Under the pieces are notes generated by a model. That model ran no database searches and was not told where the DNA came from. It saw only the letters and a program-made list of their open reading frames with translations. Made by a program: the position numbers and the translations under genes. DNA of 64,000 nt, taken from IMG/VR virus record IMGVR_UViG_2724679538_000004, positions 1-64,000 of that record. One strand, 5' to 3'. Position 1 is the first letter of the stretch. Every line of letters begins with the position of its first letter. The stretch comes from a virus. Taxonomy: Duplodnaviria > Heunggongvirae > Uroviricota > Caudoviricetes. Positions 25,304-32,386 of the stretch are shown piece after piece.

Positions 25304-27358
25304 ATGTCAAAAAAACATGTTCATAAAGAGGTACAAGACTTTCGCGATAGCGTAAAGCGAGTAGTGGCATTGCTTTCTGGAAAGAACATTCCCGTTGCAG
25401 AATGCGGGAATGAAGCTTACGTCCGCTACAACGATCACGGTGATCCTGTTCTTGTAAACATACCTTCGATTCCTGATAACGCTTCGTCAGCTTTAATGAA
25501 TGCTGTCCGGGGTTTTCTTGATCATGAAGTAGCTCATCTTCTTTTCACTGATATTCATGTTGCAAACAGAGTCAAAGAGAAAGGGAAAACTCCTTCTAAA
25601 TTTTTATGGAATGCTCTGGAGGACGTCTACATTGAGCGCAAAATGGGCCAAGTGTTCAACGGTACTCGACGCAACTTACTTGCCACCCAACGTCTGATTA
25701 TCGAGAAAGTTTTTGAGCAGCAGGTTGATAACGCGATTAATGAGAGTTCAGGCGATCAGCACAGTCTATTTTTAAAGTTCTTTCTTTGCCCCGTAGTCAG
25801 AGCCTGGGATGGCCAGTCACCCTTTGTAGACTTCATGGAAAACTACTGGAGTTTTATTGAAAAGCCTATTTCTACACTTAAGAAGCACGGCATAGACAGA
25901 GCTGTCCGCGACATGTCAAGCACAGAGGATTGTGTAAAAGTTGCCGCTACCATCGCTCAGTTATTAAAAAATCCAGACTCTGAAGAGAATGTGCTACCTC
26001 CAACACCAGACTTTGACTCTGACGAAACGAATGACCTAAGTAGTACAGCCGGAGAATCTGGAGTCGATTCCGGCAATGATTCTAAGATAGGTAAGAACCT
26101 ACCTAATAAAACAAACTCATCATGTAATGATATACATGATAACAATAGCGATGATAACTCATCTAAACCTGATCTATTTGACACTAATAATGACGGTACA
26201 AAACATGGTAAATCTGCATCAAAACAGGAAGACAAAAAGGTAGGTGATGAAGGCAATGAGAGTGACGTCTCTGAGGCCATCCCATCAACAGAAATGTCAC
26301 TGGATGAGGCTCTGGAGCAACTCGATAAGTTTGAAGATGAAGTTGGCGGAATGACAGAAGATGCCCTGTCGCAAACAATTAATGGCGAATTAAATAGCAG
26401 CAGTATTGATGAATATCGGCCTTATAACCTCTCATACGACTTCATGGGAAGTATTGATAAGGCAGAAGAACACATTAAACGAGCACTGAAAGTGTTTGGC
26501 GATATTGAGTTAGGTATCCCATTAGATCGGTATCAAATGACACCAAAAGGGATTGAGCTTTTTGAGAAGTATATTGAAAAGCACCTTTCGTCCGGGGTCT
26601 CCTCCACTCTCGCAAAAGAACTAGAGCGGGCTATCGCAAGTCGTAACAGAGTACAGTACATCCCTGGACAACGTAGAGGGCGCATTCACGGTGCGAGCAT
26701 CTACAGACTTGCCATGAATGATGATCGCGTATTCCGTAAGAAAGAGGAGAGCAGAGCGGTAAATGCTTGCGTCCAGCAGGTAATAGATTTATCTGGGTCC
26801 ATGCGTGGAGAGACGATTCAACTAGCCCTGGCAAGTGCTTACACCATAGCTGACGCACTTGACCGTATTAATGTACCTAACATCATTACAGGTTTTACTA
26901 CCTATGGTAGTCCACAATCTGCTCGTGCCATGAGAAGAGTAGGCTTCTCCAGATATGAAGCTCTGATGCAACCAATCATCAAAAACTGGAATGAAAAAGC
27001 CAATTCTCGTGAGGTTCGTACTCGCATGGGGTGCGTTAGTTACACCTTCCCCCTCATGAACAACGTTGACGGCGAAAGTATTGCAAATCTTGCTTCTCTA
27101 TTTGGTGGCAGACAGGAAGACAAGAAAATTATGCTAGTGCTAAGTGATGGTGAGCCGTTTGCTATTGGTCATGGTTTTGAAAGGCATTTAAAAAAGATCA
27201 CTAAGCAAATCGAAACTCAAACCGACATCGATTTACTGGCAATCGGTATTCTAACCAAAGCACCGAAAAAATTTTACAAAAACTACGCTCTCGTAACGAG
27301 CGTTAATAGCATTGGGCCGTCAGTTGTTAAGGAGTTATTTCGTATCATTTTGGGGTGA
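25304..27358 (+). CDS. CobT-like protein with acidic linker and C-terminal vWA domain
   Basis: MIDAS motif DLSGSM; long Asp/Ser/Asn-rich low-complexity insert; paired with CobS-like AAA ATPase. Confidence 0.65.
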   Translation: MSKKHVHKEVQDFRDSVKRVVALLSGKNIPVAECGNEAYVRYNDHGDPVLVNIPSIPDNASSALMNAVRGFLDHEVAHLLFTDIHVANRVKEKGKTPSKFLWNALEDVYIERKMGQVFNGTRRNLLATQRLIIEKVFEQQVDNAINESSGDQHSLFLKFFLCPVVRAWDGQSPFVDFMENYWSFIEKPISTLKKHGIDRAVRDMSSTEDCVKVAATIAQLLKNPDSEENVLPPTPDFDSDETNDLSSTAGESGVDSGNDSKIGKNLPNKTNSSCNDIHDNNSDDNSSKPDLFDTNNDGTKHGKSASKQEDKKVGDEGNESDVSEAIPSTEMSLDEALEQLDKFEDEVGGMTEDALSQTINGELNSSSIDEYRPYNLSYDFMGSIDKAEEHIKRALKVFGDIELGIPLDRYQMTPKGIELFEKYIEKHLSSGVSSTLAKELERAIASRNRVQYIPGQRRGRIHGASIYRLAMNDDRVFRKKEESRAVNACVQQVIDLSGSMRGETIQLALASAYTIADALDRINVPNIITGFTTYGSPQSARAMRRVGFSRYEALMQPIIKNWNEKANSREVRTRMGCVSYTFPLMNNVDGESIANLASLFGGRQEDKKIMLVLSDGEPFAIGHGFERHLKKITKQIETQTDIDLLAIGILTKAPKKFYKNYALVTSVNSIGPSVVKELFRIILG

Positions 27359-27375
27359 TTTTTTTGGCCTTGATT

Positions 27376-31800: not shown

Positions 31801-32386
31801 TATTGACGCTGTTAAAGCATCACGTCCGTTCGAAATGAATCCTAAGCGTTCTGCCGAAATTAACGTACTTATGACACGTATGGCGGCTGAAATGGGCTTG
31901 GGTGAGGAGTTGATACGCCCGACTATTGGTATTAAACCCAAAATCATGATCATTCTGGACAATGCGAACGGCAATGACGCTCGTACCGGCTACTTCATGG
32001 AGAACGGATACGACGACTTTAAGGCAAAACTACTGACAGTTGGAGATCTGCGCATGGGCGATCTTTATGTCACGGGTGTTTGTAAGAAGGTTAAGGACAA
32101 AGAGAAAGACTATACCAAAGACGAGATAGGCCAGTTCACAGACTTTATGCGGGAAGAAATTAATCTTGTACGACCAACCTACATTTTGACGTGTGGTAGT
32201 CGTTCAACCGCACTATTTAACAATAAGAGTAAACCATCAGATCTGATTGGTCGTAAGGAGTACTTCCCAGAGCTTGATGCAACCGTCTTCTACGGATTTA
32301 ACCCGAATATCCTGTACTTCCGACCGGAAGAAGGAGAGCGACTGGAGGCCATTCTGGCTGATATCGCGGAGACAATAAATAAGTAA
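28868..32386 (+). CDS. DNA polymerase III alpha-type (DnaE-like) replicative polymerase
   Basis: 1172 aa; core motifs GLIKLDVLGLATLDLL and YQFNKSHSVAY; N-terminal PHP-like region; unusual C-terminal 180 aa. Confidence 0.8.
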   Translation: MKALMVRTDFSLGESALKAENAVKIAREAGYTAVISADSMNIASVIPLQRAAGDDMAVICGVKLNIVDDPTYEHRAKLAKESMGCMESLERGRNYSFTALIKNEQGYRDICELMTVANTREQFYFVPRLSLDQLVSTYAKGNIILLTSDIGSVFQRNDFAKIISSLITAGGKDNFYSVVYPHPTPFYDQINVRAMKVASALKIEPVAFYPAYYESIDDADIKDIAHMVTNNIKIDQPHRLRIPHQRDNAVNGRRHLLEALKAFSVRMDVPVTASMASTTQDAIIEACTWRWHELPPALPKMADDEPVTLMKLAVAGLRKRLTTKEFGYTPPASEHRVYVDRLKYEMDTLTRLGFCGYFLMVRDLMNHSRETGIPVGPGRGSSAGSLVAWCIGITNVDPIRHGLLFERFINPERLDLPDADLDFSQARRHEVIEYLNERYGEDYVAGIPNFTYLGAASALRDTARIYGVDAADMAVSKEFKNLEDDSLSLEELREQLASLDKYATKNPEAFKAACKLQSLMRGFGRHAAGMIVAGVPLVERTPVELRGNARCIAFDKRYCEAMGLIKLDVLGLATLDLLDSAKRYIKESTGEDINLDAIPLDDRKVLDGFAAGYTQGVFQLESGPMRKLLKDLGGGIEPMSFKTVVATTALFRPGPIQSGMLDDYVSVAKGFMTPTSLHPVLDELTSETNGVILYQEQTMNATRLLAGFTMAEADGVRSAIGKKNMEKMRSMGEKFVIQAQAGWIDVELENGAIQRIHRAEHFKCEDGTLRTVEEALEHGVKLPMPVVRVTTSHPGLSETKAKEIWTAFEKNGAYQFNKSHSVAYSLISYQSMWLKTHYPAEFFAAALTILGEDKHQGLVKDALTYGIRVLPPDVNVSSNRIEIRTLEDGSQALYAPFSAVKGCSENGCQAIMRAREKVGGKFESVAQFDEAVEKRACNSRVRESLHKVGAFASIESGSLPATDPERLRDQAELMGNLVIDAVKASRPFEMNPKRSAEINVLMTRMAAEMGLGEELIRPTIGIKPKIMIILDNANGNDARTGYFMENGYDDFKAKLLTVGDLRMGDLYVTGVCKKVKDKEKDYTKDEIGQFTDFMREEINLVRPTYILTCGSRSTALFNNKSKPSDLIGRKEYFPELDATVFYGFNPNILYFRPEEGERLEAILADIAETINK

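Follow-up and report, generated by a model that had tools for sequence, protein, structure and literature searches.

Organization and identity of the locus

We analyzed a locus at positions 25304 to 32386 of a 64,000-nucleotide stretch of tailed-virus DNA (positions 1 to 64,000 of IMG/VR record IMGVR_UViG_2724679538_000004; the whole stretch is called the window hereafter), in which a CobT-like gene (684 aa; 25304-27358, + strand), a CobS-like AAA+ ATPase gene (411 aa; 27452-28687, +), a Cys-rich open reading frame (ORF) of 65 aa (28690-28887, +) and dnaE (1172 aa; 28868-32386, +) follow one another. The CobT-like gene was identified through Pfam, phrog_1576, PDB and alignments, the CobS-like gene through Pfam, phrog_249 and PDB, the 65-aa ORF through a full-length match to phrog_6337 (E 1.6e-45), and dnaE through Pfam, TIGR00594 and alignment with E. 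coli DnaE. An initial annotation, read from the letters alone, had described the first product as a von Willebrand factor A (vWA) protein with a DLSGSM MIDAS motif (metal ion-dependent adhesion site) and an acidic linker, and the second as a MoxR-type AAA+ ATPase directly upstream of a DnaE-like polymerase. Both are present, with Pfam matches to CobT and CobT_C in the former and matches to AAA_5 and Brucella CobS in the latter; the 65-aa ORF between cobS and dnaE had been missed. As described below, the polymerase ends in a family-4 uracil-DNA glycosylase (UDG) fold whose catalytic residues appear to be lost throughout its clade, and this DnaE::UDG protein occurs together with a distinct long form of CobS and CobT.

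Nucleotide similarity, together with the presence of both phage and plasmid modules, identifies the window as an SSU5/pHCM2-type phage-plasmid, a group that has been described (PMC7969092). Megablast of the 7-kb region gave 82-86% identity to Escherichia phage Cyrano, PhiR41_1 and Salmonella phage SSU5, and up to 88.8% to E. coli plasmids. The alignments to Cyrano, SSU5 and the E. coli plasmids span 83-86% of the region (82-89% identity), and the first ~1 kb, which encodes the CobT N domain and linker, is too divergent for megablast. In PLSDB, 699 records from Klebsiella, Escherichia, Enterobacter, Yersinia and Salmonella match the 7-kb region. At the protein level the similarity to Cyrano is mosaic (CobT 67%, CobS 86%, the N part of DnaE 92% and the UDG tail 100% identity), which suggests recombination within the operon.

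The DnaE tail adopts a family-4 UDG fold

The dnaE product is a C-family, DnaE-type polymerase that possesses the PHP domain, the Pol3 core (palm, thumb and fingers) and (HhH)2. At the default threshold, Pfam recognized PHP (E 9e-13), DNA_pol3_alpha (E 1e-72), the finger domain (E 2e-43) and HHH_6 (E 3e-16), the matches ending at aa 955, and gave no match to the OB fold or the tau-binding C-terminal domain (CTD) by which an E. coli-like DnaE1 is recognized. The protein scores above the cut-off for TIGR00594 (620.7 bits vs 434) and below that for the DnaE equivalog NF004226 (670 bits vs 1002). The Asp triad is intact, the equivalents of E. coli D401, D403 and D555 being kept (DADLDF, aa 418-423; KLDVLG, aa 566-571), and alignment with E. 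coli DnaE revealed that the PHP metal ligands are mostly substituted, a degeneration found in the whole clade. Because the PHP metal site is degenerate, proofreading would fall to a separate DnaQ-like enzyme. A DEDDh 3'-5' exonuclease of 185 aa is encoded at 56592-57149 (+; Pfam RNase_T E 1e-21), just where the initial annotation had placed such a gene; its best NCBIfam match is the epsilon subunit (74 bits vs a cut-off of 196), and it is the presumed trans-acting proofreader of DnaE.

The end of the polymerase had been set apart earlier as unlike the usual DnaE tail. This held true insofar as the last ~190 aa contain no OB or tau-binding domain and match no canonical DnaE domain, but the tail proved to be a known domain, a family-4 UDG fold, which a 2014 paper had already reported (PMC3919608). 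Searched alone, the last 228 aa matched Pfam UDG (E 0.021) and the Sulfolobus tokodaii family-4 UDG (E 0.012), and a profile built from ten homologues retrieved 4zbx (E 1.8e-7) and both 1l9g and 1ui0 (E 1.4e-6) from PDB. The AlphaFold2 (AF2) model of aa 984-1172 had a mean predicted local distance difference test score (pLDDT) of 91.5, and a Foldseek search of this model against PDB gave template modeling (TM) scores of 0.78-0.81 with 4zby/4zbx and a range of 0.75-0.81 when UdgX is included, with E values down to 8e-12. The agreement of sequence profile, AF2 model and Foldseek indicates that aa 984-1172 (31817-32383, +) form a family-4 UDG fold in place of the OB and tau-binding domains.

The 2014 report described, as the 'DnaEX' class, a form of DnaE that ends in an archaeal-type UDG domain, in Yersinia pestis pMT1- and Salmonella pHCM2-type replicons (Timinskas et al., NAR 42:1393; PMC3919608), and the UDG-tailed DnaE is already known rather than novel. 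The window protein has the same PHP-Pol3-(HhH)2 arrangement with a PF03167-type domain in the place of OB and CTD, belongs to the same replicon family and shows no difference in kind. What our analysis adds to the description of 'DnaEX' is the clade-wide degeneration of the catalytic motifs, the reach of the clade into phages of Alpha- and Gammaproteobacteria, and the frequent split of the gene by an HNH endonuclease gene.

Catalytic motifs of the UDG tail are degenerate across the clade

The tail has its fold in common with the family-4 UDGs (Thermus UDGA 1ui0, Sulfolobus tokodaii 4zbx and Thermotoga TM0511) and with UdgX. However, unlike the family-4 enzymes, it is fused to a polymerase and carries LDNAN in motif A in place of GE[AG]PG, Gly in place of Asn and Asn in place of His; in the alignment with 4zbx, LDNAN stands for GEAPG, TG for the uracil-recognizing TN and NP for the motif-B HP. 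None of the 4Fe-4S cysteines that characterize family 4 is conserved in the SSU5-group tail, in which the motif-A Pro is lost in addition, and the score for the family-4 profile TIGR00758 (29.5 bits) lies far below the cut-off of 125.3. Alignment of eight clade members gave xDxP[NST] as the motif A of the clade, with G, S or A at the Asn position and N or S at the His position. The members sharing these degenerate motifs come from Photobacterium, Ectothiorhodospira, uncultured phages, Pseudomonas phage hairong and Rhizobium phage RHph_N1_10. In several distant members, three of the four Fe-S cysteines are retained, an indication that the domain descends from a genuine family-4 enzyme.

A UDG profile search of 1.84 billion representatives (E <= 1e-3) returned 601 relatives, and the top 150 were classed. 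Most of these 150 are either ~1080-1170 aa long (DnaE::UDG) or ~380-430 aa long (split pieces), with the UDG domain at the very C terminus. The motif-B His was found in none of the 44 full-length and none of the 32 split fused representatives (0/76), and the base-recognition Asn in only one of the 76, among the 44 full-length ones; the canonical E/N/H set occurred only in short stand-alone proteins. To judge from these alignments, the clade-wide loss of UDG catalytic residues is a new observation, and uracil excision by the known mechanism is unlikely for the DnaE tail.

Physical coupling of a UDG fold to a replicative polymerase has precedents in the phage PolA UDG domains and in poxvirus D4/E4, which also offer precedents for catalytic loss and for a role in processivity or template scanning. 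The N-terminal UDG domains of phage PolA are active in SPO1- and SP15/YerA41-like phages and no longer possess the catalytic residues in N4-like phages (bioRxiv 10.1101/2025.03.26.645540), and the processivity role proposed for vaccinia D4 was extended to SPO1 and T5 PolA by Kazlauskas and Venclovas (PMC3201878). Unlike these systems, the window polymerase belongs to the C family and has its UDG domain at the C terminus in the place of OB and CTD.

A fingers insertion and a recurrent HNH split of dnaE

The fingers domain contains an insertion of ~50 aa (aa ~739-791; 31082-31240, +) that only the SSU5 group has: Cyrano carries it, as does, in split form, the related locus L002, whereas it is absent from E. 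coli DnaE and from the related loci L003-L007, L088 and L089. Its sequence is very variable between the window and Cyrano. A loose likeness to Hint block B led us to consider an intein remnant, which was rejected in view of the much too small size of the insertion and its high variability. An ORF with NUMOD4 and HNH_3 domains splits dnaE, in many SSU5-group relatives, into pieces of 787 aa and 389 aa, the latter comprising HhH and UDG. An example is L002:4918-9170, and the equivalent position in the window is about 31240, at which the gene itself is uninterrupted; the HNH homing-endonuclease gene sits exactly at the C-terminal edge of the fingers insertion. The HNH insert was found in 15 of 73 IMG/VR loci chosen by CobS and in 12 of 65 chosen by the UDG tail. 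The split C-terminal piece, named 'uracil-DNA glycosylase' by NCBI, belongs to a cluster of 1459 member sequences, and the distant 50%-identity representatives likewise often include pieces about 380-430 aa long. This recurrent split of dnaE by an HNH gene at one site is an addition of the present analysis.

Between the HhH domain and the UDG fold lies the motif DQAELMG (aa 969-975; 31772-31792, +), which is invariant in close homologues and conserved in distant relatives, with the clade consensus DQxEL[LM]PGL. It fits the pattern Q-x-[SDE]-L-[LMF], a regular expression that matched 34 of 90 representatives within the set search window, and with some uncertainty it may be regarded as a candidate beta-clamp-binding pentapeptide.

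The CobS-CobT pair resembles a chelatase motor and adaptor

The CobS-like protein belongs to the MoxR/chelatase clade of AAA+ ATPases (Pfam AAA_5 E 5e-16; phrog_249 E 4e-105) and aligns over aa 173-411 with Brucella CobS (PDB 9ujv; E 3e-27), its Walker A (GHAGTGKS, aa 175-182) and Walker B (LADEYD, aa 239-244) motifs both being intact. For the NCBIfam CobS equivalog TIGR01650 it reached only 86.5 bits vs a cut-off of 558.55, with aa 174-411 alone aligning. In front of this core lies an N-terminal extension of ~170 aa (27452-27960) that is absent from Brucella CobS and carries invariant C18, C21 and H31 in a CxxC...H...H arrangement, which looks like a small zinc-binding module.

In the CobT-like protein (phrog_1576, E 6e-264), Pfam recognized CobT (PF06213) at aa 8-264 (E 1.9e-22) and CobT_C/vWA at aa 476-684 (E 3.2e-85). 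Brucella CobT in PDB aligned with aa 422-673 only (E 5e-18), including the MIDAS residues, and all vWA/MIDAS positions are present (DLSGSM, aa 495-500; NNVDGES, aa 586-592; LSDGEP, aa 613-618). The linker at aa ~226-380 is a low-complexity stretch rich in D, E, S and N, with 38 D+E, 11 K+R and 59 S/N/T/G among 155 aa, and in clade relatives the acidity of the linker is higher still, reaching 61 D+E per 100 aa. Because Brucella CobT also has such a linker, this is an ancestral CobT trait and not a peculiarity of the phage. The NCBIfam CobT equivalog TIGR01651 was matched by the C-terminal part only, at 84.1 bits vs a cut-off of 759. A plasmid search for canonical CobT returned 1012 hits, all of which (1012/1012) were phage-plasmid CobT-like genes.

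The CobT N domain matches Pfam PF06213, and searches against PDB with phmmer and with a profile gave no match to CobT or Brucella CobT_N. It contains HEVAH (aa 74-78) and EDVYIE (aa 106-111), encoded at 25523-25636, in a gluzincin-like pattern with the Glu 33 aa downstream. Most clade members, as well as ICP2-type CobT, keep this HExxH with downstream Glu, and both His residues are lost in the CobT of Pseudomonas phage hairong. The phrog_459 family, named 'peptidase', matches aa 71-131 (E 2.4e-8), and canonical CobT_N reportedly resembles an M48C peptidase domain. A fold search with the AF2 model of the N domain found no zincin, the model resting on a shallow alignment because the homolog search gave only close, fragmentary relatives.

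With the cobaltochelatase pair CobS-CobT (Brucella CobSTN), the window proteins have in common the AAA+ clade-7 core, the Walker motifs, the acidic linker, the vWA/MIDAS and the adjacency of the genes. They show the motor-adaptor layout of the broader MoxR-vWA pairs CbbQ-CbbO, RavA-ViaA and NorQ-NorD, and adjacent, co-oriented AAA+ and vWA/MIDAS genes were present in every relative examined. In the cobaltochelatase, CobST forms a hexameric motor whose adaptor puts a shaft in the ring and holds CobN near the MIDAS face (bioRxiv 10.64898/2026.07.21.739949). Unlike cobaltochelatase CobST, the window pair misses the equivalog cut-offs, bears the CxxC...H extension on CobS and a dissimilar CobT N domain, and is embedded in a replication operon, with no cobN or any other cob gene among the window ORFs scanned.

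Phage cobST clusters have been described before, and the published reading is that host CobN is borrowed and more B12 is made (PMC8651126; PMC3037004). The same kind of two-gene cluster is known from ICP2-type Vibrio phages and haloarchaeal tailed viruses, and cobS from T4-like cyanophages; in ICP2-type phages, as in the window, cobST is part of the replication region. CobS of the SSU5 clade stands apart as a group of its own, with at least 35% identity within the clade and at most 31% to cyanophage and ICP2 CobS. No experimental function of phage CobST, or link to DnaE, was found in the literature. We also considered that CobST might insert metal into the PHP domain, which is unlikely, given the degeneration of the PHP metal ligands throughout the clade. 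In the Cyrano record (L001:4960-8399), the two genes are labeled 'dimethylbenzimidazole phosphoribosyltransferase' and 'cobalamin synthetase', which looks like an annotation error because the names collide with those of the unrelated CobT and CobS of the Salmonella nomenclature.

CobST is co-inherited with DnaE::UDG

We scanned IMG/VR for the closest 80 loci each for CobS and for the UDG tail, and took the distant context from other contigs and from isolate phages. The initial annotation had taken the co-location of CobST and the polymerase as a hint of a replisome-associated chaperone or remodeling function, a proposal that a lack of linkage in relatives would help to refute; the genes are tightly linked in relatives, and the synteny extends down to 37% CobS identity. 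At 44-51% CobS identity, in a Photobacterium chromosome, an Ectothiorhodospira prophage and three metagenomic contigs, the CobT-CobS-DnaE::UDG order is kept within the longer order [integrase/repressor]-small ORF-CobT-CobS-one or two small ORFs-DnaE::UDG-x-gp32-FEN-RecA. At 37-39% identity it persists in Pseudomonas phage hairong (Nickievirus), Rhizobium phage RHph_N1_10 and Stenotrophomonas phage BUCTxx99, and the same synteny was seen in marine phages.

Among isolate phages, the 31 records with a CobS of at least 35% identity were the same 31 that have the UDG tail (31/31); this CobS group was found there only together with DnaE::UDG, and the next CobS hits were cyanophages, at no more than 31% identity. 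The best 80 IMG/VR loci by CobS comprised 73 with a complete DnaE downstream, five cut by the contig end, one with a deletion and one without DnaE. In the locus with the deletion (L052), the C-terminal part of DnaE follows cobS directly and the N part is deleted, and in the other (L059) no DnaE lies within 10 kb downstream of cobS; each may be a defective element. Conversely, of the best 80 loci by UDG tail, all 65 with enough upstream DNA encode CobT and CobS (65/65). The ICP2-type Vibrio phage JSF27 has a distant CobT-CobS pair ~2.8 kb upstream of genes for a helicase and a split PolA, so that the pair sits in a replication module with an A-family polymerase too.

As far as gene order and sequence tell, the CobST pair belongs to a persistent replication module of a large phage clade, and the strict co-occurrence of the distinct long-form CobS/CobT with DnaE::UDG in these data is an addition of the present analysis.

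Possible functions of the UDG tail and of CobST

According to the above-described analysis, we favor, with somewhat more confidence than doubt, the view that this is a replication operon in which a non-catalytic UDG tail and a chaperone-like or remodeling CobST are co-inherited with the DnaE::UDG replicase. The operon encodes the element's own replicative polymerase plus a CobT-like adaptor, a CobS-like motor and the 65-aa protein. Because the motif-B His, the base-recognition Asn and, in the SSU5 group, the Fe-S cysteines are lost, the UDG tail would most likely serve as a non-catalytic DNA-binding, template-tracking or processivity module, and since the scanned window ORFs revealed neither a sliding clamp nor a clamp loader, it is most economical to think of DNA binding or processivity. 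The host beta clamp, drawn in via DQxEL[LM]PGL, may work alongside the tail. CobS and CobT would assemble like cobaltochelatase CobST into a hexameric ATPase ring with its adaptor, whose MIDAS/vWA domain would grip a client, presumably a phage or host protein needed at the start of lytic or plasmid replication; this client would not be a cobalt chelatase, because hosts of the E. coli type have no CobN. The missed cobaltochelatase equivalog cut-offs make such a replication-linked, chaperone-like role of CobST plausible. More tentatively, and here we are inclined to doubt, the long-form CobS/CobT could be an ATP-driven assembly or remodeling factor for the DnaE::UDG replisome or for origin loading, unrelated to cobalamin; the pair was present in every informative DnaE::UDG phage or phage-plasmid locus examined, including those of hosts without CobN.

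Several observations speak against these proposals. All genomes with DnaE::UDG and CobST belong to one broad clade with conserved gene order, so that common descent can explain both synteny and co-occurrence, which then amount to a single evolutionary observation. CobST is not tied to DnaE in general, because cyanophages pair cobS with a B-family replicase, and a link between CobST and the polymerase is proposed from synteny. The absence of CobN from the hosts comes from established knowledge of the B12 pathway. For the tail, motif A keeps an acidic residue (D for E) and the pocket motifs are strongly conserved; active glycosylases of the MUG/TDG type have no motif-B His either. That DQAELMG binds the clamp is made less likely by the MAFFT alignment, which places the motif on the E. 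coli helix HRAALMNSL and not on QADMF.

The alternative that survives best, though we regard it as doubtful, is that CobST acts early on a target outside the replisome and that its adjacency to dnaE is inherited gene order; host takeover, anti-defense or ATP-dependent proteolysis through the CobT HExxH...E pattern are candidate roles. The position of cobT as the first large gene past the repressor switch would suit such an early function. The conservation of HExxH with its downstream Glu in most clade members and ICP2-type CobT, the 'peptidase' match and the reported M48C likeness would suit a proteolytic one, against which the loss of both motif His residues in hairong CobT speaks. Viral cobS is found alongside replicases of the A, B and C families, and the gene next to cobS in distant relatives is a sigma-70-like one rather than a replication gene, both of which loosen the tie to the replisome; the strict co-occurrence with DnaE::UDG (31/31 and 65/65) tightens it again. 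PADLOC gave no hits, and a defense or anti-defense assignment of CobST was dropped on this ground.

For the tail, the competing idea is that the UDG-like domain is an active glycosylase of altered chemistry or specificity, reading the template ahead of the polymerase and removing uracil or another base. The retained acidic residue of motif A and the fact that MUG/TDG enzymes work without the His are the reasons for which we leave this idea a small chance, while still thinking it unlikely. The family-4 fold is complete and confidently predicted, the pocket motifs xDxP[NST], [WYF]T[GAST] and GFNPG are conserved in the clade, template-scanning UDG domains are active in SP15/YerA41-type PolA-UDG fusions, and the database name of the split piece would agree. 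Against it stand the missing His (0/76) and nearly missing Asn (1/44), the SSU5 group's loss of the motif-A Pro and of all Fe-S cysteines, the low TIGR00758 score and the like catalytic loss in N4-like PolA. A non-catalytic tail remains our preferred reading.

Least probable is that CobS and CobT are auxiliary metabolic genes, a cobaltochelatase motor hijacking host CobN for cobalamin during infection: despite the published proposal, the homology in AAA+ core, acidic linker and MIDAS residues, and the aerobic CobN pathway used by some clade hosts (such as Rhizobium and Pseudomonas), both equivalog scores are far under their cut-offs, the CobT N domain is unmatched to Brucella CobT_N by sequence or profile, CobS has its extra ~170-aa region, the element's ribonucleotide reductase is of class I and hence B12-independent, no cob gene accompanies the pair among the scanned window ORFs, the genes stand in a replication operon and not amid moron-type cargo, and the E. 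coli, Yersinia and V. cholerae hosts are not known to possess CobN or to make B12 de novo by the aerobic route.

Viral cobS, which belongs to the core genes of cyanophages, is routinely counted as a vitamin-B12 auxiliary metabolic gene. If the remodeling-factor reading of CobST is true, 'cobS/cobT' would be mis-assigned as such in this clade, and possibly in ICP2-type phages and cyanophages, and CobST would represent a novel type of accessory factor in replication that uses the motor-adaptor design of the chelatase. With CobST strictly co-inherited and apparently co-transcribed with the replicase, in hosts unable to use a cobaltochelatase, the element offers a tractable E. coli/Salmonella system for viral CobST. 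The DnaE::UDG fusion extends the coupling of UDG and replicase from A- and B-family viral replicases to the C family. Phage-plasmids of the SSU5/pHCM2/pMT1 type are very common in clinical Enterobacteriaceae, with about 700-1000 PLSDB records carrying the module, and they bring their own polymerase; the practical gain will be modest until experiments are done.

Operon structure and borders

The region is the first rightward (early) operon of the element, beginning beside the repressor/integrase switch. To its left lie a tyrosine integrase gene (23246-24349) and, as the left border, a divergent CI-like repressor gene of 130 aa (24344-24736, -), which was recognized from the ORF list and from its synteny with Cyrano CYRAN_45 ('putative repressor, HTH'); in the relatives L003, L004 and L007, this slot is occupied by ORFs with weak HTH_3/HTH_19 matches. 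The first ORF of the rightward unit is a small leader ORF of 70 aa (24991-25203, +), and an ORF of like size stands in the leader position in Cyrano (CYRAN_46) and in L002-L007. Directly upstream of cobT lies a perfect 12-bp inverted repeat, CTGTACGAACAG-N9-CTGTTCGTACAG (25218-25250), whose half-sites were found twice vs 0.21 expected and which recurs unchanged, in the same relative location, in 26 related loci. It may be an operator or an attenuator hairpin, and is a candidate regulatory site of the early operon. The ATG of cobT is preceded by the Shine-Dalgarno sequence AAAGGA, and an in-frame GTG lies upstream at 25250.

The genes cobT and cobS are on the same strand, 94 nt apart. The 65-aa ORF starts 2 nt past the cobS stop, and its end shares 20 nt with the start of dnaE, a spacing that suggests translational coupling. 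It contains four Cys, is 83-98% identical in SSU5-group loci and is absent from distant relatives, in which the slot is taken by a sigma-70-region-2-like protein (~207-225 aa) and an ORF of ~170-190 aa; the small ORFs after cobS are often sigma-70-region-2-like in these relatives. A GC-rich hairpin, AAACCCGCC-TGTT-GGCGGGTTT (32393-32414), begins 7 nt past the dnaE stop and is likely the end of the unit, common to the convergent cold-shock-like gene beyond it; no comparable terminator-like site was found on the + strand between cobT and dnaE. Since the gene gaps are small or negative, no such internal site turned up in the consensus scans and a hairpin follows dnaE, we infer that 24991-32386 is one early transcription unit.

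Other genes of the window and minor observations

The cold-shock-like gene (32690-33001, -) is convergent with dnaE. It is followed by two ORFs on the - strand, 33235-33834 and 33859-34083, that are syntenic with the HicB antitoxin and HicA toxin genes of Cyrano, and the cold-shock-like and HicB/HicA-like genes together (32690-34083, -) form cargo between dnaE and the UvsY/gp32 genes. A Rep3-type initiator is encoded at 41470-42525. The window ORFs further include genes for a gp32-like single-stranded DNA-binding protein, a flap endonuclease (FEN), RecA, SbcCD-like proteins, a DnaB-like helicase and a DnaG-like primase, as well as an ATP-dependent ligase, class I ribonucleotide reductase, ThyA, dihydrofolate reductase, Dam, RNase H and tail fibres. 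Amid the helicase and primase genes, on the opposite strand to them, lie a GIY-YIG (LEM-3-like) nuclease ORF (8325-9143, -), which may be a homing endonuclease, and a gene for a Sel1-repeat protein (12746-13936, -), which may be a moron. In the Ectothiorhodospira prophage relative, a RecA-like gene of 686 aa (L006:18375-20435) has a weak Intein_splicing hit between two RecA_N hits and may contain an intein.

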